DNA of 64,000 nucleotides from Candidatus Falkowbacteria bacterium. Lineage in GTDB: Bacteria; Patescibacteriota; Patescibacteriia; CAIXNZ01. The notes under the pieces were generated by a model. It searched no databases. It was not told the origin of the DNA and saw nothing but the letters and a program-made list of their open reading frames with translations. The stretch spans positions 21,913-85,912 of the forward strand of contig JAFGMD010000021.1 of NCBI GenBank assembly GCA_016927685.1, given 5' to 3'. Below, piece by piece: positions 5,892 through 14,175 of the stretch. The position numbers and the translations under genes are program-made. The stretch's first letter is position 1. Each line of letters opens with the position of its first letter.

Positions 5892-6021
5892 AAACACCTC
5901 CTTTTATATATTTCTTTTATCAGCTTGAGAATATTTTGTCAATATAATATTAATTCATTGACTTGAAGATTTTTTTGTGCTATTATATCATATATAAAAC
6001 GAATTTCACTTCGTTTTTTTA

Positions 6022-6069
6022 TTCCGGGGTAGCGCAGTTTCCGCCAGAGGCGGATCAGCCTTCGGCTGA
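6022..6069 (+). repeat. Duplicated tRNA-Asn 5' end plus double-hairpin REP-like palindrome
   Basis: ttccggggtagcgcagt 6022-6038 equals 6344-6360; tccgcc-aga-ggcgga and tcagcc-ttc-ggctga hairpins. Confidence 0.85.
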
Positions 6070-6092
6070 GGCTGTCTTAAGGGCTTAAAATT

Positions 6093-6338
6093 ATGTATTA
6101 TGTTTACGTATTAAAAAGCTTAAAGAATGGCAAAAGATATGTTGGCTTTACCAGTAAACAATTGAATGCTAGATTTAAGGAACACAATGCTGGTTCTAAT
6201 AAATGGACACGAGAAAATAGACCTTTTATAAATATATATTCAGAAGAATATAAAACAAAAACCGAAGCAATGAAACGCGAAAAATTTCTAAAATCTGGGC
6301 AAGGAAGAAAAATTTTAGATAGTATTATCGATAAGTAA
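6093..6338 (+). CDS. Small stand-alone GIY-YIG nuclease
   Basis: YVYVL..RYVGFT..ARFKEHN..EAMKREKFLKSGQGR. Confidence 0.92.
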   Translation: MYYVYVLKSLKNGKRYVGFTSKQLNARFKEHNAGSNKWTRENRPFINIYSEEYKTKTEAMKREKFLKSGQGRKILDSIIDK

Positions 6339-6344
6339 TAATTT

Positions 6345-6419
6345 TCCGGGGTAGCGCAGTGGTAGCGCAGTTGGCTGTTAACCAATTGGTCGTGGGTTCG
6401 AATCCCACCCCCGGAGCCA
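6345..6419 (+). tRNA. tRNA-Asn(GTT)
   Basis: Acceptor tccgggg/ccccgga, anticodon arm ttgg-ctGTTaa-ccaa, GGTTCGAATCC T-arm, 3' CCA. Confidence 0.97.
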
Positions 6420-8006
6420 TTCTGCACGAACAGAGGCGAGAGCCTCTGTTTTTGCTTTGTTTAAGGGCAGTATCTTTGGTTCTAACCTTAGATATTCTTT
6501 TTCTAAGACTGAATAACTATTTTTTATTGGGAGAAACCAATTATTGGCGGAAATAGTGAGTTTCCCGTCTTTCATCAAAAAGTTCGAGCCTAAAGCCATT
6601 ACAATGCTTTTCTTGGCTTGTAAATCTCCCAATAAGAAGTTTTTGTAAGCATAAGTAGCAAAGTTAAAGGTATTTTCAGTCAATTCTAACCAACGCTCTG
6701 CTCTGGCTTCGGTCTCCCGTAATTTTTCTTTTAGCTGAATTATTTTTGATTGGAGTAAATTTTTTTCTTTGGTAAAAGCTTCATCATCAATCAGCTCCCT
6801 ATATCGCATTTTGGTAAGCTCATCAATTTCTTTTTGGGTTTTTAGCAAATCAATGCTTAAGCTTTCGTGAATTTTACTTCGGTCTTCAATTTCCTTATCA
6901 TTTGACTGATTTAATACTCCCAAAGCCCAATCTCTAAAATCTGGTAAAATTGTAATGCTTTTTAGTTCATCCAAGATTTGATTTTCTAATTCTTCCTCTC
7001 TGATAACTTTTTTTTGGGAGCAATTTACTCTTATTGTTTTTCTGGTGCAATGGTAGTAAGTATATTTTTTAATCACCCCCGTGCTTTTAATAAACTTCTT
7101 TTTAATTTCAGCCGTATAAAGACAACCGCATTCAGCACATCTGATAAGTCCAGTAAAAGCGAATTTATATTTTTGCGGTCTTGGCTTGCCCTTTTTGCCA
7201 AGTAAAATCTGCACTCGGTCAAATTCTTCCAATGTAATAATTGGTTTGTGATTGCCCTGATATTGTTTGCCAGCCCAATCAATAATGCCAGCATAGAAAA
7301 TATTGTTAAAAATTCTGTATATCCCGCTTTTAGATAATTTGTTATCGCCAATCCTTTTATATTTTTTAGTTCTAAAGCCCCATTCATTATTAGCTAATTC
7401 AAGAATTTTAGGCGGTGTATAATTGCCAGTCAGCATTAAATCCCACATTTTCCTAACCAAGTTAAAACGCTCTGGGTCTTCAGCGATTGTTTTATTTTCT
7501 TTATCGTTGACATAGCCAAGGGGAGCTAAATTGGGCAACCAGCCTTTTTCTAATTTACTTTCCAAACCTCTTTTAGTATTTTTCTTTAAATCAAGGATGT
7601 ATTGATTGGCAACGCCAGTTTCAACACTAAAAAGCAGAACATTGTCATCTGGGAGATATTGCCTATCTATTGTTTGAATTGATTTAAGCGTCCCTTGCTG
7701 TAAAAGCCAGCCTAATTTACCGCTATCAATCGGATTTCTTGAAAGGCGGTTTATTTGCCAGCATAAAATCCCATCTGCTTCGCCTTGCTCTATTTTTTGT
7801 ATCATTTCATCAAATAGGGGTCTGTTATAGGGTTTCTTGGCAGATTTGGCTTCAGTATAAATCTTTTTAATGCTTAAATTCGTTTCTTGAGCTAATTTTT
7901 TTAAGCGGTTGATTTGGTCATCAATTGACTGGACTTGGCGGTCTTCACTTTCAGATGATTTTCTGGCGTAGAGAAAATATTTGATTTTTGATTTATTTTC
8001 GGTCAT
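6378..8006 (-). CDS. Large serine recombinase/integrase; last codons read antisense through the tRNA
   Basis: YARKSSE catalytic motif, NRLSRN, APLGY, RCAECG..YYHC zinc ribbon, coiled coil; ends WLRGWDSNPRPIG. Confidence 0.95.
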   Translation of the reverse strand: MTENKSKIKYFLYARKSSESEDRQVQSIDDQINRLKKLAQETNLSIKKIYTEAKSAKKPYNRPLFDEMIQKIEQGEADGILCWQINRLSRNPIDSGKLGWLLQQGTLKSIQTIDRQYLPDDNVLLFSVETGVANQYILDLKKNTKRGLESKLEKGWLPNLAPLGYVNDKENKTIAEDPERFNLVRKMWDLMLTGNYTPPKILELANNEWGFRTKKYKRIGDNKLSKSGIYRIFNNIFYAGIIDWAGKQYQGNHKPIITLEEFDRVQILLGKKGKPRPQKYKFAFTGLIRCAECGCLYTAEIKKKFIKSTGVIKKYTYYHCTRKTIRVNCSQKKVIREEELENQILDELKSITILPDFRDWALGVLNQSNDKEIEDRSKIHESLSIDLLKTQKEIDELTKMRYRELIDDEAFTKEKNLLQSKIIQLKEKLRETEARAERWLELTENTFNFATYAYKNFLLGDLQAKKSIVMALGSNFLMKDGKLTISANNWFLPIKNSYSVLEKEYLRLEPKILPLNKAKTEALASVRAEWLRGWDSNPRPIG

Positions 8007-8031
8007 ATAATTATAATTTAATAATTAAAAT

Positions 8032-8150
8032 GGACGGTTCTGGTTAACCCAACACACTTGCCCGAAGGTAGTTTTGTCGGCAGAACCGCCCATTAAAAGC
8101 GACAAAAAATAATAAATCCTTCGAACATAGATTGTGTGTGGGTTAACACT
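8032..8150 (-). ncRNA. Structured leader RNA upstream of the recombinase (c4/CI-like topology)
   Basis: Nested stems gttaaccca/tgggttaac, cgaagg/ccttcg, ttttgtcg/cgacaaaa; alternative pairing 8032-8042 with 8081-8091. Confidence 0.6.
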
Positions 8151-8194
8151 TGTATTATAGCCTATTTTAAAGATTAAGTAAAATTAAATTTCAT

Positions 8195-9031
8195 CTAATT
8201 TATTTTCTCTTTTATCACTTCGCTTGCCTTGGGATAACTTGCATACATTTTATCATTTTCTTCCTTGCCATAAGTCATTGCTATAAGTTGCTTTACTCTT
8301 ATTTTAAACATTGCTTTTTGTTCTTCAGTTATTTCATTATTTGTCTGGTTAGACTGATTAAAATTATTTTGTTGAGAAACTAGAAATTTATTATTATCAA
8401 GCATTGCTGGCAAAAAACCAAATCTAACTAACAACTTATCAAGTTCATTTAAATGATTAGACAGTTTAGCAAGGGATATTTGTAAAAATTCATAACTTAA
8501 AACTAATGACTTGCTGGGCATTAAATCGCCTGCATTGGCTTTTTTAATTTTCTTTTTTAAATTGCCGATACCTTCTTCCATTGATAAAACAATACTTTCT
8601 GATTTTTGATATAATTTCACCCTTGCCGAAAAAATATCAAAATCTTTTAATACTCTGCCTATTTTAACTTCATCTCTTAGTCGCAATGCTATACCTTGAA
8701 CTTCAAGTTCTTGATTTTCCTTGCTCAACTTCTTTTTAAAATCATTTATACTAACAACGCTTGGTATAAGTTCTTTGGGTATATCTGGAAATTCTCTAAG
8801 CATATCTTCTAAAAAAAATGGGGCTGGAACGCTTAAGGTTATCAATGCTTTTATGGCAAACTCACGAAAACCTTTTTTGGTATTCATCAAATATCCAAGC
8901 TTCCCGCCATACTTTTTATACTTTATAGCAGTTTGAATATATTCTTTACCGACTGTATGTTTCTTTGGTTTAACATTAACTTGCTTATTCTCTTGCGGAT
9001 TTTTCTCTATTTGTAATTTTAATTTTGCCAT
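8195..9031 (-). CDS. Hypothetical island protein
   Basis: Long ORF; ATG at 9031; no family recognised. Confidence 0.7.
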   Translation of the reverse strand: MAKLKLQIEKNPQENKQVNVKPKKHTVGKEYIQTAIKYKKYGGKLGYLMNTKKGFREFAIKALITLSVPAPFFLEDMLREFPDIPKELIPSVVSINDFKKKLSKENQELEVQGIALRLRDEVKIGRVLKDFDIFSARVKLYQKSESIVLSMEEGIGNLKKKIKKANAGDLMPSKSLVLSYEFLQISLAKLSNHLNELDKLLVRFGFLPAMLDNNKFLVSQQNNFNQSNQTNNEITEEQKAMFKIRVKQLIAMTYGKEENDKMYASYPKASEVIKEKIN

Positions 9032-9209
9032 AGTTGCTTTTTTTAGGTATTTTCTCTTTATTTCTCTATAATAAAGAAAGTTAATTATTATCACTAAAGA
9101 AGTAATATATTAAGTATCAACACATTATAGGAATAGACTTTAAAGTTCTTTTATTTTGCTATATAGTATTATAATACTATTACTTTAGAATTCTATATCC
9201 ATTGCTAAA

Positions 9210-9527
9210 CTAATCCCTTTCGTTTATTGATTGGCTTATCAGATATTCAGTATGTTCAGTATTAAATTTTTCTAAAACTAACTTGCAAAATGAATTCCAC
9301 AGCTCCTTATCATCAGTCCAAAATATCTTTATCCATTTACCGCCCCCAGAACGATTAGCGGGCGGATATGCTACAAAGGGTTCTTTATTTTCAAATATTG
9401 ATTTTCTAATAGTGAAACCTCTGATTTCAAACTGCCCAATTATTAAAATCATTGTAGCTGGCATTTCTGGATTGTCAGTAAATTTGAATTTGAATTTTAA
9501 AGCATTTAAATCTATAGTCATAGTCAT
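9210..9527 (-). CDS. SpoVG-like nucleic-acid-binding protein
   Basis: FEIRGFTIRKS...FVAYPP...W pattern resembles SpoVG family. Confidence 0.55.
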   Translation of the reverse strand: MTMTIDLNALKFKFKFTDNPEMPATMILIIGQFEIRGFTIRKSIFENKEPFVAYPPANRSGGGKWIKIFWTDDKELWNSFCKLVLEKFNTEHTEYLISQSINERD

Positions 9528-9572
9528 TTATGTTAATAGCTTAAATAAATCGCTGTAATCGCCAATTTGCCC

Positions 9573-9800
9573 CTAATTTGGGCGGTCTTCAGAGGTGTTA
9601 GCAAAAAGCTCAAGATGTTTTAATATGCCCCTTTTATCGCTTTGGGAGTAATCGTCTTTAACTACCAGTCGATTAAACCAATGGCTGATTGTCTTTTTAG
9701 TAAAACCTCGACCCTTTATTGCCATCGCAAAGCAAAGATAAGAGCTGTAATAGGAATTTCTATTTTGGATTTTGGTAAATCTCCGTGCTAAAGATTTCAT
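9573..9800 (-). CDS. Small hypothetical island protein
   Basis: ATG ORF in co-oriented island gene run. Confidence 0.7.
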   Translation of the reverse strand: MKSLARRFTKIQNRNSYYSSYLCFAMAIKGRGFTKKTISHWFNRLVVKDDYSQSDKRGILKHLELFANTSEDRPN

Positions 9801-9834
9801 AATTTTAATGTTAATTATAATTATTTAAGGATTT

Positions 9835-10017
9835 TTAATTTTGTTTCATCTTCTCCCAAACTTCTTTAAATTCTGTTTCGGTCATCGGCTTGTAAATCAA
9901 TTTAAATAACTCAACGAGCTTTGCTCCCATATCATAGGCAACTTCACGGCTTATTTCCTTGCCGAAGTTTTTTTTATAGATATTCTGAAATTTTATTATT
10001 TGCTCATCGCTTAGCAT
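9835..10017 (-). CDS. Small hypothetical island protein
   Basis: 60-aa ATG ORF, co-oriented with neighbours. Confidence 0.7.
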   Translation of the reverse strand: MLSDEQIIKFQNIYKKNFGKEISREVAYDMGAKLVELFKLIYKPMTETEFKEVWEKMKQN

Positions 10018-10032
10018 AAGTAAGCATTTTAT

Positions 10033-10293
10033 TTATTCGCTATAAATCCTGTTTTTAAGCATTTTGATATTATCAAAAAGTGTGCGGGCATTAACTTTTA
10101 GGTTGTCTTGCCAGTAATTGTTTATGGCAAGGTCAATGCTTTCAGCACGCTTAAAAATAAACTGCACTTTTTTAGAATTGGTCTTGTCTAAACCAACCAA
10201 TTCATAATCAAGGGATACTAAGACAGAAGCCAATCCTAAATCAAAGGTTAAAAAAATTTCTGACGGCTGTAATTGGGAGCAATTTTTTGTCAT
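10033..10293 (-). CDS. DUF5659-like phage-associated small protein
   Basis: DLGLAS.L...VQFIF...F..IK.LKNRIY pattern. Confidence 0.6.
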   Translation of the reverse strand: MTKNCSQLQPSEIFLTFDLGLASVLVSLDYELVGLDKTNSKKVQFIFKRAESIDLAINNYWQDNLKVNARTLFDNIKMLKNRIYSE

Positions 10294-10403
10294 ATAATTT
10301 AATGAATAATAAAAAAAGTAAGCTTAATGTTAGCTTACTTAATTGTGTGTATTTTTGAGTAGTGGTTATTTGGGGTCTGTTTGGGGTTTATCTGGAGGCT
10401 GTT

Positions 10404-11114
10404 TTAAATATTTAATATAATATTTCCGCTATTATTTACAAATTCTTTTTGATTTAAGCCAGTCTTTAACCTAATATCTTTTACGACTTCATTTATTTTA
10501 TTGGTTATGGTTATTTCTCGTATTGATTTTTTTCTTATTGTTTCATCTCCCAAAGCTGATAATATTTTTCGAGGGTCAACGCCATTATCAACGCCATTAA
10601 GATTTAATACTTTAATAACATCTTCTCTTAAAATCTTCCTCCCCCTATTTTCAAAAGCCAAATCAAAAAGTTTTTTATATTTACCGCTATCTTTAAGCCG
10701 TTTAAATTTTTCGCCCCTCAATTCACCGTCTCCAGTTTCAGGATTATATTTAAAAATTCCATCTTGTCTTATATCTATTTTCTGAAATATAATTTGATAT
10801 TGTTTATAAACCTCATCAAATTTTGGCTGTAAAATATCTACTAAAACCGAAATAGATGTGGGCACTATCCCTAACCAATCCCATTCATACTCATTTAAAG
10901 GTGAAGGTAAATATTTTTCCTTGATTATATTTATAGCACTTTCATTATTTAATAATATCAGGGCTTTTTTCTGTTCTATTTTCGTTGGTATTGTTTTGGT
11001 AGGATTTTGAAATCTAAAATTAAGATACTCATCTTTAGGCGTGGTTAAAAATTCAGCCTTCAATTCTTGTAAAGTCCACCATACAGCTTTATTAAGTTTT
11101 TCTTCTGTTGTCAT
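10404..11114 (-). CDS. Hypothetical protein, possible C-terminal winged-helix regulator
   Basis: 236-aa ORF; C-terminal KINEVVKDIRLKTGL resembles OmpR-type wHTH end. Confidence 0.6.
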   Translation of the reverse strand: MTTEEKLNKAVWWTLQELKAEFLTTPKDEYLNFRFQNPTKTIPTKIEQKKALILLNNESAINIIKEKYLPSPLNEYEWDWLGIVPTSISVLVDILQPKFDEVYKQYQIIFQKIDIRQDGIFKYNPETGDGELRGEKFKRLKDSGKYKKLFDLAFENRGRKILREDVIKVLNLNGVDNGVDPRKILSALGDETIRKKSIREITITNKINEVVKDIRLKTGLNQKEFVNNSGNIILNI

Positions 11115-11227
11115 AGTAATTTAGGCTAATTTTCATAGTAATATATCTATATTTTAGCTTATTTTGATTACTTTTTCAAGATTTCAAAAGCCCTTTTAAA
11201 ATTTATCGTGTTTTGATACAATATAAG

Positions 11228-11367
11228 TGTTCACCCATAACGAAATAACCTAAAGGGAAGCTGTCCATTCATTAGCCAATTATGGCTGGAAATGGGCAGT
11301 CGAGTTCCATAATTGGCTCTCCCTTTGGGTGAACCGTTATGGGTGAACAGCTCGGCTGTCCTTTTTT
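11228..11367 (+). ncRNA. Structured leader RNA/attenuator (c4/CI-like topology)
   Basis: 15-bp perfect IR 11228-11242/11335-11349, 12-bp IR 11274-11285/11307-11318, alternative 11294-11304/11351-11361 pairing then T-run. Confidence 0.65.
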
Positions 11368-11411
11368 ATTTAACTTAAATATAAAATTAAATCTTAATCT
11401 TAATCATTTTT

Positions 11412-11999
11412 ATGGAAAACGAATTAAAAAACAACTCAAAAAGTAAAAAACCGATTTATAAAAAATGGTGGTTCTGGGTGATTATTTTCTTTTTTGTAAT
11501 GGGCATAAAGGGATTTATCGGAAATTCCATCATAACTACAGATAATACAAATAATCCCGTTAATGCTCCAAAAGAAATTGAAAATTGGAAATATGGTGAA
11601 AATGTAGATAAAATGACATCTGAAAAAATATATTATGCATACACAACTTCGACTAATCGGATTGACTTTGATTTCCCTTACAATGGTGGCTCAAATTTTC
11701 AACTGCTAGTTAGAAATGGGGGCAAAAAAAATGAGATACTTTTAAGTGTCTCTAAGGGGCAGTTTATGACAAGCATTGGTTATTCTGATGTAAGAGTTAA
11801 ATTTGATGACAATAAACCAATTGTTATAAATTATAGTTCTCCTTCAGATGGAAGTTATGATACTATATTTCTTAAGCAATCAGATACTTTAATATCTGAA
11901 TTAAAAAAGAGTAAGAAGGTCATTGTTGAAGCCGAATTTTTTGATGAAGGCAACCAACTAATAGAATTTAATGTAGAGGGTTTTAAATGGGATAAATAG
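11412..11999 (+). CDS. Membrane-anchored exported protein (mobile-element cargo)
   Basis: KKPIYKKWWFW anchor followed by soluble domain. Confidence 0.8.
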   Translation: MENELKNNSKSKKPIYKKWWFWVIIFFFVMGIKGFIGNSIITTDNTNNPVNAPKEIENWKYGENVDKMTSEKIYYAYTTSTNRIDFDFPYNGGSNFQLLVRNGGKKNEILLSVSKGQFMTSIGYSDVRVKFDDNKPIVINYSSPSDGSYDTIFLKQSDTLISELKKSKKVIVEAEFFDEGNQLIEFNVEGFKWDK

Positions 12000-12071
12000 T
12001 TCTTCTTTCTCCCAAGGATAGTGAAATGGTATAAAAAAAGATGTATTTAAGATAATTAAATTAAAAAAATT

Positions 12072-12245
12072 ATGGAAGTCCTTTTTTATTGGTTGATAGT
12101 GTTGGGTATTTATTTTATACCAACCTTTCAAGCAATCAATTCACACAAGAAAAACAAAGGTGCTATTTTCGCTCTCAACTTATTGCTTGGGTGGACTATA
12201 ATTGGGTATATCGTTGCTCTTATTTGGAGTTTAACTAAGGATTAA
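12072..12245 (+). CDS. T4 Imm-like superinfection immunity protein (57 aa, not in ORF track)
   Basis: Hand translation MEVLFYWLIVLGIYFIPTFQA...IFALNLLLGWTIIGYIVALIWSLTKD shows the YFIP/NLLLGWT.IG..VALIW signature. Confidence 0.9.
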   Translation: MEVLFYWLIVLGIYFIPTFQAINSHKKNKGAIFALNLLLGWTIIGYIVALIWSLTKD

Positions 12246-12322
12246 ATTAGGTATATAAATATACTCATTTGACTGCTTAAATATAGTTCTAATGTCATTC
12301 ACGATGTGGAGCAAGTATAATA

Positions 12323-12353
12323 AAAAGCCCTGCATTTATATCGCAGGGCTTTT
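12323..12353. terminator. Intrinsic terminator (probable original tRNA terminator)
   Basis: aaaagccctgc-N-gcagggctttt, about 10 bp after the distal att core. Confidence 0.75.
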
Positions 12354-12375
12354 AAAATATACAAAAATACGTTTA

Positions 12376-12633
12376 TTACCAGCCATTAGAGCTGGTACGG
12401 GCGCAGTCACTATCAGATTCACATAGATTGGGAATTGCGCATAAAAACTCAGGTAAAAGATATTTTATACGCTCTCCTAAAGTAAATTTACGCAAGTGTT
12501 TTTGTGGTTTATCCACCCATCTTAGCAAGGGCATCCTCGTATACCTGAACCAGATGCCGTCAGCTAATACTAGTGTGCCAATGCTGATAACAATGGTTAA
12601 GATAATTATCCCAGGTAAAAAAGCGTACCACAT
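12376..12633 (-). CDS. Small membrane protein (SD-led cassette)
   Basis: AAAGGAGG SD; N-terminal hydrophobic helix. Confidence 0.65.
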   Translation of the reverse strand: MWYAFLPGIIILTIVISIGTLVLADGIWFRYTRMPLLRWVDKPQKHLRKFTLGERIKYLLPEFLCAIPNLCESDSDCARTSSNGW

Positions 12634-12825
12634 CTTTTCCTCCTTTCGCCTGTAAACAAACAGGCATTTTAAGACCTAAATTTTTTATACGAACCTATTT
12701 AAATTTTGCTCCACTTTTTCTTTTTTGTCAATATATTTTTTAAAAAGATTATGACTTGATTTATTTTAAAAATTCTGTTAAGTTTTTCTTATATTTGTTC
12801 TATCAAAATTCAAAGGAGAGAAATA

Positions 12826-14175
12826 ATGAAAAGAGCGTTTACTAAGGATCAAACCTGGCTACAATGCATGGATTGCGGCTATAGAGCTGATTTATTGAAT
12901 GAAAGATTCTTCCGCTGTCCAAAGTGTCAAGGACTTTATGACATTCATCATGATTTGAATCCACCCCTAAAAGCATTGGCTCGTGTTTATGAATTAGAAC
13001 GCCCTGATCTTACTTATAAGCGTGTATTTGATTTTAGAGCTGGGAAGGGTACTTCTTGGTCTGGTCCTGTTTTGTCTTCTGGTGTTTGGCGTTTTAAGGA
13101 ATTGATAATGCCATATTTACCGGAAAAGCACATTATTAGCCTACAAGAAGGTAATGTACCAATCGTACGTGCTGGAAAGTATTTACGGCAATGGGTTGGA
13201 GATTCAATTGATTTATACATTATTTTGGAAGGCCAATCTCCGACTGGCTCATTTAAGGACTTTGGCGGAACAGTGATGATGTCAATCGCCAAAGCGGCCG
13301 GCATTGAAGCGGTCTGCTGTGCTTCAACGGGTGATACCTCGGCCATGGCCGCTGCCTATGCTGCTGCTGCAAATATTCGTTGTGCAGTTCTTTTGCCAAA
13401 AGGCAAAGTAACACCAGCGCAATTAGTGCAGCCGCTTATTTATGGAGCACGAGTTATTACTTTACCAGGCGATTTCGATGATTGTATGCGCGTTATGCAG
13501 CATCTTGTGACTAATTACCGTATTTATCCTGCCAACAGCTTAAATCCCTCAAGAATTGAGGGGCATCAAGTAACAGTATTTCTTATCGCACAAAATTTCG
13601 AGTGGGAATTGCCTGATTGGATCGCTGTGCCAGTAGGAAATGGTAGTAATTGTTCTTCAGTGGGCAAGGGCTTGCGCCTTATGAGCCAAGTAGGATTTAA
13701 GGTTAAGACAAAAATTTTGGGATGCCAGTCCCAAGCCGCAAATCCTTTGGCATTGTCATGGAAAAATGCAATATCCATACAAGAATGGCAAAATGCTTAT
13801 AAGTCAATTAAGGTTGGCGAAACAACTGCTACTGCGGCACGAATCGGTAATCCTGTTTCTTGTAAAAAAGTCATGCGTGAAATCACGCTTTCAAACGGGG
13901 AAATGCAAACGGCTTCTGAAAAAGATCTTAATGAAGCAGTAGCGATTTGCGGTAGAGACGGATACTTTGTCTGTCCGCAAACAGGCATAGCCCTAGCTGG
14001 GGTAAAAAATGCAGTGCGGGATGGGCAGATTCAAAAAAATGAAAGAGTGGTGGTCGTATCTACAGCAACTGGCTTAAAATTTACTGACTCTGCATCTAAT
14101 AATCTGAAAAAGGAAATAATTTCAGCACCAAGTTGTAAAACTGAAACAGTGCTCAATCTCATTATGCACACTTAA
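12826..14175 (+). CDS. thrC: Threonine synthase (PLP fold type II)
   Basis: PTGSFKD, CASTGDTS, PVGNGSN, ATGLKF; N-terminal CxxC pairs. Confidence 0.9.
   Translation: MKRAFTKDQTWLQCMDCGYRADLLNERFFRCPKCQGLYDIHHDLNPPLKALARVYELERPDLTYKRVFDFRAGKGTSWSGPVLSSGVWRFKELIMPYLPEKHIISLQEGNVPIVRAGKYLRQWVGDSIDLYIILEGQSPTGSFKDFGGTVMMSIAKAAGIEAVCCASTGDTSAMAAAYAAAANIRCAVLLPKGKVTPAQLVQPLIYGARVITLPGDFDDCMRVMQHLVTNYRIYPANSLNPSRIEGHQVTVFLIAQNFEWELPDWIAVPVGNGSNCSSVGKGLRLMSQVGFKVKTKILGCQSQAANPLALSWKNAISIQEWQNAYKSIKVGETTATAARIGNPVSCKKVMREITLSNGEMQTASEKDLNEAVAICGRDGYFVCPQTGIALAGVKNAVRDGQIQKNERVVVVSTATGLKFTDSASNNLKKEIISAPSCKTETVLNLIMHT

Follow-up and report, generated by a model that had tools for sequence, protein, structure and literature searches.

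A serine integrase gene that spans its own attachment site in a tRNA-Asn gene, and the predicted docking of the tail that integration removes

What does an integrase lose when its own reaction cuts its gene? The question arises at a tRNA-Asn(GTT) gene in a 64,000-nucleotide stretch of Candidatus Falkowbacteria DNA (GenBank assembly GCA_016927685.1, contig JAFGMD010000021.1, positions 21,913 to 85,912; hereafter the window), which belongs to a genome of 946 kb that is 97% complete. There, downstream of genes that we take to be dnaG and rpoD, an element of 5,895 bp lies between two copies of the core GGAGC, and the gene of a large serine integrase at its left end runs antisense into the tRNA, so far that its stop codon (6378-6380) falls in the anticodon loop (Table 1). 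An earlier note, made from the letters alone, had proposed that the attachment site of the circular element (attP) lies inside this gene and that integration swaps the C-terminus of the enzyme. Here we report that the boundary, the attP junction and a conserved coding tail beyond it are real. Integration removes the tail, and in a model of a homolog it is predicted to dock where the recombination directionality factor (RDF) of a related enzyme binds.

The element boundary and the coding tail beyond it

Three Pfam domains follow one another above cut-off in the integrase (PF00239, residues 11-155; PF07508, 181-269; PF13408, 284-349), and the catalytic motif with Ser17 and four zinc-ribbon cysteines are present. 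The layout leads from the catalytic domain through the recombinase domain, zinc ribbon and coiled coil to a family-specific C-terminal extension. In the homolog P0128, which aligns full-length to SPbeta Int, the coiled coil is predicted within DNA-binding domain 2 (DBD2) as helices 354-401 and 407-461; the fold matches SPbeta Int with Z 19.6 and a root-mean-square deviation of 24.6 over 455 aligned residues. By domain order, coiled coil and the symmetry of attP about a 2-bp crossover, the enzyme is a large serine integrase. On the CcrB model it scored 76 bits against a cut-off of 900, outside the CcrB/CcrA type of SCCmec. The same genome encodes a second serine recombinase (G000:C24:37568-38734, L027; 446-residue frame, 35% identity) at a locus without a tRNA, and searches of Pfam, PHROGs and NCBIfam found no second recombinase among the eight other open reading frames (ORFs) of the element.

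Joining the element ends at GGAGC in silico yields an ORF of 556 codons that stops at 12231-12233, compared with 542 in the integrated state. The core, as the earlier note had cautioned, is weak evidence on its own, and so is the open frame: 1083 of 4300 arbitrary junctions (25%) also give at least 25 open codons. GGAGC occurs five times on the forward strand of 6000-13000, and identity between the two copies stops at the core. We therefore rejected core or frame as sole evidence for the boundary. Two results remove the doubt. In run X3, from the independent study P3, one contig joins 12307 to 6413, with five letters that fit either side; it has 78 letters on its short side and a depth of 4.2, and its source is a relative about 96% alike. 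The crossover falls within the reading frame, which the joint completes, and the computed and observed joints agree on the two isoforms that had been proposed. Independently, a hidden Markov model (HMM) built from 18 natural tails, this element excluded, ranked the segment at 12305 on the reverse strand first among 44,612 six-frame segments of the genome, at 31.7 bits compared with 13.0 for the runner-up. With the four closest training tails dropped it still came first (20.5 compared with 12.1 bits). These observations confirm the boundary, the attP junction and the coding tail.

The read search that the earlier note had suggested was carried out on four runs and gave half of what was sought: the attP joint appeared in one contig of one run, and the joint of the empty site (attB) in none of the four. 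Read cover was low beyond 8045 in the likely source run, of which about 56% was read, and we draw no reading from it.

The reconstructed empty site ends in GGAGCAA. Two genomes, G002 and G004, carry the same tRNA, which there ends in GGAGCA and lacks the CCA; different DNA from 12313 onward rules them out as exact empty sites. The hairpin that would follow the tRNA there (12323-12353), noted earlier as a terminator, is real as a hairpin; the terminator call does not extend to the forward strand, where its T run is 4. A third genome, G001, of the same genus, is ruled out as an exact empty site by an inverted tRNA. In it the tRNA-Asn (L044 10854-10933, on G001:C2) is inverted relative to flanking genes that the window also has. 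Between this tRNA and the downstream shared gene lie another 6.4 kb with different genes, presumably including a nuclease and a DNA methyltransferase.

In the window, 6022-6038 duplicates the first 17 nucleotides of tRNA-Asn and is followed by a GC-rich, hairpin-like stretch (region 6022-6338), within which an 81-residue GIY-YIG ORF (PF01541) directly precedes the true tRNA-Asn. A similar 5' duplicate occurs in G001 and G002 with another insert, and the short spacer there lacks the GIY-YIG ORF.

Where exactly does recombination take place? The smallest core common to 15 element ends is two bases at tRNA positions 71/72 (6414-6415 in the window), and the symmetry of attP peaks at the same center (0.42, compared with at most 0.29 at other centers). 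At 11-18 bp from the crossover, the host (B) arm contains the T-loop motif of the tRNA, a putative site for DBD2, the zinc-ribbon domain, by comparison with passages of PMC11722253. Its counterpart in the element (P) arm lies at 16-23 bp, 5 bp further out, which fits the 5-bp offset between attP and attB DBD2 motifs described for serine integrases in the same source. No clear motif was found in the P' and B' arms; the best mean score of P' was -0.6 at either distance, compared with 10.5 for P and 11.1 for B. A reversed geometry, with attL resembling attB, had rested on a wrong center and was dropped.

The encoded CCA of the tRNA is the antisense of the codon for Trp530 of the integrase, and its C75 and A76 are derived from the element, as the earlier note had held. 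Trp530 is unchanged in 31 of 31 aligned homologs, and in most loci the tRNA or transfer-messenger RNA (tmRNA) ends called by ARAGORN begin at this codon. Since CCA is encoded in only 5 of 42 parsed host tRNAs and is missing from 8 of 15 right element ends, the element often adds an encoded CCA. Just before Trp530 the tRNA strand can form a hairpin followed by a T tract. Across 121 related arms, 86% of cells pair in the register of this hairpin, compared with 34-58% in slid registers; several pair types occur per position, the T tract is present in 101 arms, and 75 arms fall within the lowest 5% of synonymous shuffles. The hairpin probably serves as a replacement terminator for the tRNA. The last codons of the gene are at once protein code, att arm, tRNA CCA and terminator-like hairpin.

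Conservation and predicted docking of the tail

We wondered whether the tail is kept as protein or merely through its overlap with the attachment site. Overlap with the att arm affects the first nine codons of the tail, in which constraint on the DNA is visible: the arginine codon is AGA in 18 of 21 tails, and pS (synonymous divergence) is only 0.41. The overlap accordingly explains part of the conservation in codons 2-9. It is refuted as an explanation for codons 17-23, which lie 46-66 bp from the crossover, outside the half-site. In these codons the 21 tails gave pN (nonsynonymous divergence) 0.20 and pS 0.78, a ratio of 0.26; the mirror frame gave 0.40, and the ratios of four other frames were 0.9-2.8. 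Third positions in the tails are saturated, and because they are free the DNA itself is not what selection keeps in codons 17-23. Together with the HMM ranking, this upholds the earlier claim that the distal tail is coding.

The same comparison argues against a purely economical arrangement, in which the gene overlaps attP to save space, the tail is a dispensable structural piece and the isoforms behave alike. The overlap of nine constrained codons belongs on the side of that reading, as does the fact that a functional difference between the isoforms is so far only predicted. Purifying selection beyond the att arm, the narrow range of tail lengths (23-33 residues in the 21 tails), a terminal module present in 120 of 401 genomes of the class and the confident interface described below all tell against it, and we regard it as distinctly unlikely.

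The tRNA-derived ends behave otherwise. In 124 relatives they reach up to 124 residues with a median of 11, and 34 of them have three residues or fewer. Judged from these alignments, the distal tail is conserved as protein and the tRNA-derived end is not. Since the one is conserved and the other arbitrary, integration removes a module and does not exchange two functional tails: the swap of C-termini stands as far as removal goes, and fails as an exchange.

We gathered 160 related loci, many of them labeled Patescibacteria or Parcubacteria, which suggests a host of the CPR type. The integrase runs into a tRNA-type 3' end in 129 and has another tail in 15; the 16 incomplete loci were left out. 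Asn, Gln, His, Ser, Trp, Met, Ile, Asp, Glu, Lys and Arg are among the targets of the family. The 124 distinct integrated loci (73 with at least 5 kb upstream) yielded 14 tail matches of at least 15 bits in 13 loci, all upstream on the integrase strand; none of that score occurred downstream (630 kb) or on the other strand. In the matches inspected, the core was in register with the tail. Homologs thus show the two classes of C-terminus that had been anticipated, tRNA-derived and natural, with orphan tails at distal ends. A terminal repeat was absent from all 15 loci with another tail. Other tail classes begin at the Trp codon in five loci (L130, L153, L162, L163 and L166), all opening with a similar amphipathic stretch, and one such class, of 37 residues, is common to several different bodies.

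Natural continuous proteins, in which body and tail are joined, number at least 36 by a strict count among the 150 representatives listed, and 128 of 146 retrieved family proteins end in tRNA-derived or very short tails. Most database proteins are therefore the cut form, and a screen built on integrases cloned in their annotated form would examine the wrong isoform.

Some joined proteins come from tandem arrays. In three of six fusion-type loci (L254, L255 and L097) a tRNA is followed by an integrase with a tRNA tail and then by an inner integrase with an attP-type tail; L260 does not fit the pattern. L097 (894-3665) contains a pair of distal tails separated by 1,080 bp, of which one belongs to a fusion with a divergent integrase and the other is an orphan. 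Joined attP-type genes also occur on long contigs labeled Bacteroidetes and Nitrospinota (L121 10001-11692 and L101 8005-9675); the roughly 35-37 kb covered downstream contain neither a tRNA nor a second integrase. Viral contigs, searched for free circular forms, yielded only distant relatives (1 and 16 loci). From the tandem arrays, and from the tail's occurrence on divergent bodies, it follows that some natural continuous proteins are chimeras and that the X3 joint need not be a circle.

What would the enzyme lose with its tail? In the AlphaFold2 model of P0128, itself a natural continuous protein (mean predicted local distance difference test, pLDDT, 84), the junction falls within a helix of residues 522-548. 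Solved serine integrases align to P0128 only up to about residue 497; the cut form therefore keeps all canonical domains and loses part of the family-specific extension. When the P0128 tail (535-564) was folded against the body (275-534), the docking score was 0.76 and the best of three controls 0.00; 116 of 157 solved complexes reach the mark for docking, as do 2 of 215 mismatched pairs. The runs agree in at least 95% of contacts, with partner pLDDT of at least 81. Predicted contacts fall at 356-367, 438-458, 469-476 and 494-506, with none in 371-436. The inter-hinge segments map to about 352-370 and 437-446 by hand count on an HMM alignment to SPbeta Int. The tail is thus predicted to dock on both inter-hinge segments of the coiled coil and on DBD2, away from the distal coiled coil. 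In SPbeta Int, the essential helix of the RDF is flanked by DBD2 and by the inter-hinge segments, according to passages of PMC11722253. The model in this way lends structural support to a role for the tail in directionality.

A proposed control of direction and its alternatives

These findings suggest a mechanism. The 5,895-bp element would recombine at tRNA positions 71/72, with attP about 25 codons before the end of its integrase gene. In the joined, circular state the tail would finish a long helix and pack at the coiled-coil base, over both inter-hinge segments, and over DBD2. Since an incoming circle encodes only the tail-bearing enzyme, we infer that the long form must be the one that integrates, and it would do so with the tail covering the RDF site. 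Integration would then strand the tail 5.9 kb away and leave an enzyme that retains all its canonical domains, with a tRNA-derived end that means nothing and a groove that lies open. Only the integrated state would permit excision, in the simplest case by way of a separate RDF, and recombination itself would set the direction of the enzyme. A direction switch of this kind, in which a separate RDF gains access to the RDF region of the cut form, seems to us evenly balanced between right and wrong.

The earlier note had recognized no obvious RDF gene. We disagree on this point: relatives of a 60-residue ORF read from 10017 to 9835 occur in the upstream regions of 72 of 77 related integrases, and none of 63 host-side (downstream) flanks has one. 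Co-occurrence makes this predicted three-helix protein the best RDF candidate. It has no match in PDB sequences, in Pfam above cut-off or in Foldseek; in wider searches VIA wide gave a best Z of 4.2 and Atlas a best value of 0.89, to an unnamed match. That it mimics the tail was considered and rejected (no profile similarity, probability 0.2%).

The fullest form of the proposal is that tRNA-end integrases are widespread and carry a built-in directionality tail of 25-30 residues beyond attP that plugs the RDF region, that tails pass between divergent tandem elements, and that the 60-residue protein represents a new RDF class acting only on the cut form. We put this forward tentatively, as a reading that falls somewhat short of an even chance.

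Several points weigh against the proposed switch. The docking used a homolog (367 of 530 residues identical), its pieces were two halves of one natural chain, which tend to pass, its alignments were our own, the solved SPbeta Int-RDF structures could have guided the model, and the tRNA-derived tail was not among the controls. An alignment of about 19% identity underlies the hinge mapping, and residues of the interface are not more conserved than their neighbors (0.75 compared with 0.72). A near-identical tail occurs on bodies only 25-35% identical to P0128, so the tail is not specific to its body. An HMM selected the tails for the pN/pS comparison, which partly builds in amino-acid conservation and the absence of stops; it does not build in the saturation of third positions. 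No tail match of at least 15 bits came from 60 of the 73 loci that have 5 kb or more upstream; these 60 could hold longer elements or other tail classes. The lone attP joint may stem from a tandem pair. Among 41 genomes, ten matches to the 60-residue family divide into five that lie upstream of such an integrase, at up to about 4 kb, and five away from one, and the protein resembles neither the tail nor any solved chain. The direction of the switch was reached by reasoning, and its activity side draws on prediction.

The cut helix and the tandem arrays can also be read as attenuation, as in Mx8. The tail would complete the fold at the coiled-coil base, and the integrated isoform would be unstable or weak in both directions, locking the element in; only the circle, or the insertion in front of a second element that hands on its tail, would restore full enzyme. 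The junction does cut a predicted helix and bare a hydrophobic surface, the tRNA-derived ends are arbitrary, and in the three arrays above the inner integrase has received the tail of the newcomer. McMurdie et al. made a similar proposal for DsiB of Dehalococcoides, which in their view would be fully functional only from the circle or where an adjacent island precedes it (passages of PMC3146451), and the integrated form of the Mx8 integrase is reported to be less active (passages of PMC4701971). Attenuation accords poorly with a short isoform that retains every domain of solved serine integrases, and with a predicted docking site that matches the RDF site and not the catalytic or DNA-binding cores. 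We consider it unlikely on balance, although a serious contender.

A tail in the RDF region might, conversely, be a fused directionality factor for integration, with no separate RDF; the short form would excise by default and be restrained through expression, by the structured leader and the antisense tRNA. Engineered C-terminal Int-RDF fusions do flip direction in SPbeta (passages of PMC11722253), and no recognized RDF lies within the element. The leader at 8033-8150 could control integrase expression. Such reversed polarity sits badly with the ordinary near and far spacing of the B and P arms, their P' and B' partners being without clear motif, and constitutive excision would cost much; we think it very improbable, and prefer the reading in which the tail covers the RDF site until integration removes it.

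Neighboring genes and known systems

Virion, packaging, replication and conjugation genes were not recognized among the eight cargo ORFs in Pfam, PHROGs and NCBIfam, and five of the eight have no family (Table 1). The long inverted repeat at 11228-11349 matched no Rfam family at the gathering score and nothing in the 77 related elements.

Table 1 Features of the element and its surroundings (window coordinates)
Feature	Position	Strand	Remark
tRNA-Asn(GTT), integration target	6345..6419	+	integrase end reads its 3' half antisense
Large serine integrase, integrated isoform, 542 aa	6378..8006	-	3' end inside tRNA-Asn 6345-6419
T-loop motif, host (B) arm	6396..6403	.	profile of 125 B arms, position weight matrix scan
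Left core GGAGC	6413..6417	.	putative crossover dinucleotide 6414-6415
Encoded CCA	6417..6419	+	antisense of Trp530 codon
Terminator-like hairpin and T tract, tRNA strand	6428..6451	+	within integrase coding sequence
Structured 5' leader of integrase gene	8033..8150	-	folding z -3.4; similar DNA in 6/77 elements
299-aa ORF, no family found	8195..9094	-	Pfam, PHROGs, NCBIfam searched
105-aa and 75-aa ORFs, no family found	9210..9800	-	relatives in 3/77 and 7/77 elements
60-aa three-helix protein, putative RDF candidate	9835..10017	-	model pLDDT 91
86-aa DUF5659 protein	10033..10293	-	relatives in 59/77 elements
236-aa ORF, no family found	10404..11114	-	relatives in 10/77 elements
Long inverted repeat between divergent gene blocks	11228..11349	.	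very stable fold, z -7.9
195-aa protein with N-terminal hydrophobic stretch (phrog_1848) and 57-aa superinfection-immunity-family protein (PF14373)	11412..12245	+	
Orphan 25-codon tail and stop	12231..12308	-	completes integrase only once ends join
P-arm motif, element side	12286..12293	.	5 bp further out than tRNA-arm counterpart
Right core GGAGC (attR)	12308..12312	.	second copy of left core
Host hairpin, would follow tRNA in empty site	12323..12353	.	terminator scanner: - strand only

How does this arrangement compare with known ones? Our literature search, which had supplements and most subscription papers outside its reach, found no description of a tRNA-end family or of a tail that docks at the RDF site, and an earlier printed account is possible; the passages of PMC12884075 and PMC13626063 contain nothing on an attP-in-integrase layout. 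What makes serine integrases insert or excise is under active structural study, and the enzymes are tools of genome engineering.

The earlier note had named Mx8 as precedent, which is apt; it is not the sole one, serine integrases having at least two. DsiB, from the Dehalococcoides ssrA islands (McMurdie et al. 2011), spans its own att site: a serine integrase of about 540 residues on the reverse strand beside attL, its 3' end overlaps attP/attL, running antisense into a stable-RNA gene with a variable end. It differs in targeting the tmRNA gene and in the presence of a second recombinase, DsiA, in the module; a conserved tail or a test of mechanism is not among the passages of PMC3146451 drawn on. 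In the streptococcal rumA integrative and conjugative elements, passages of PMC4701971 likewise place the att site within a serine integrase gene, with C-termini that differ between integrated and excised states and a suggested functional difference. There, however, the target is a protein gene, the 3' exchange is reciprocal and the elements are conjugative; overlap with a tRNA, CCA or terminator is not described in those passages.

Two tyrosine recombinases share part of the layout. Mx8 has attP inside int, and integration trades a 112-residue end for one of 13 with a drop in activity (Magrini et al. 1999, via passages of PMC4701971); its integrase, unlike ours, is without a coiled coil or RDF groove. 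In SSV-type integrases of archaeal viruses an internal att site also interrupts int on integration, but the gene is split and not trimmed of a short tail (passages of PMC5861418).

SPbeta Int itself (passages of PMC11722253; PDB 9dxh and 9dxd) aligns to about residue 497 of P0128, without the extension and tail, and its RDF is a separate protein. The layout is thus already known for serine integrases, and what is new here is the predicted docking of the tail at the RDF region. If this is true, directionality would be controlled in a new way, by a tail at the RDF site that the reaction itself takes away.

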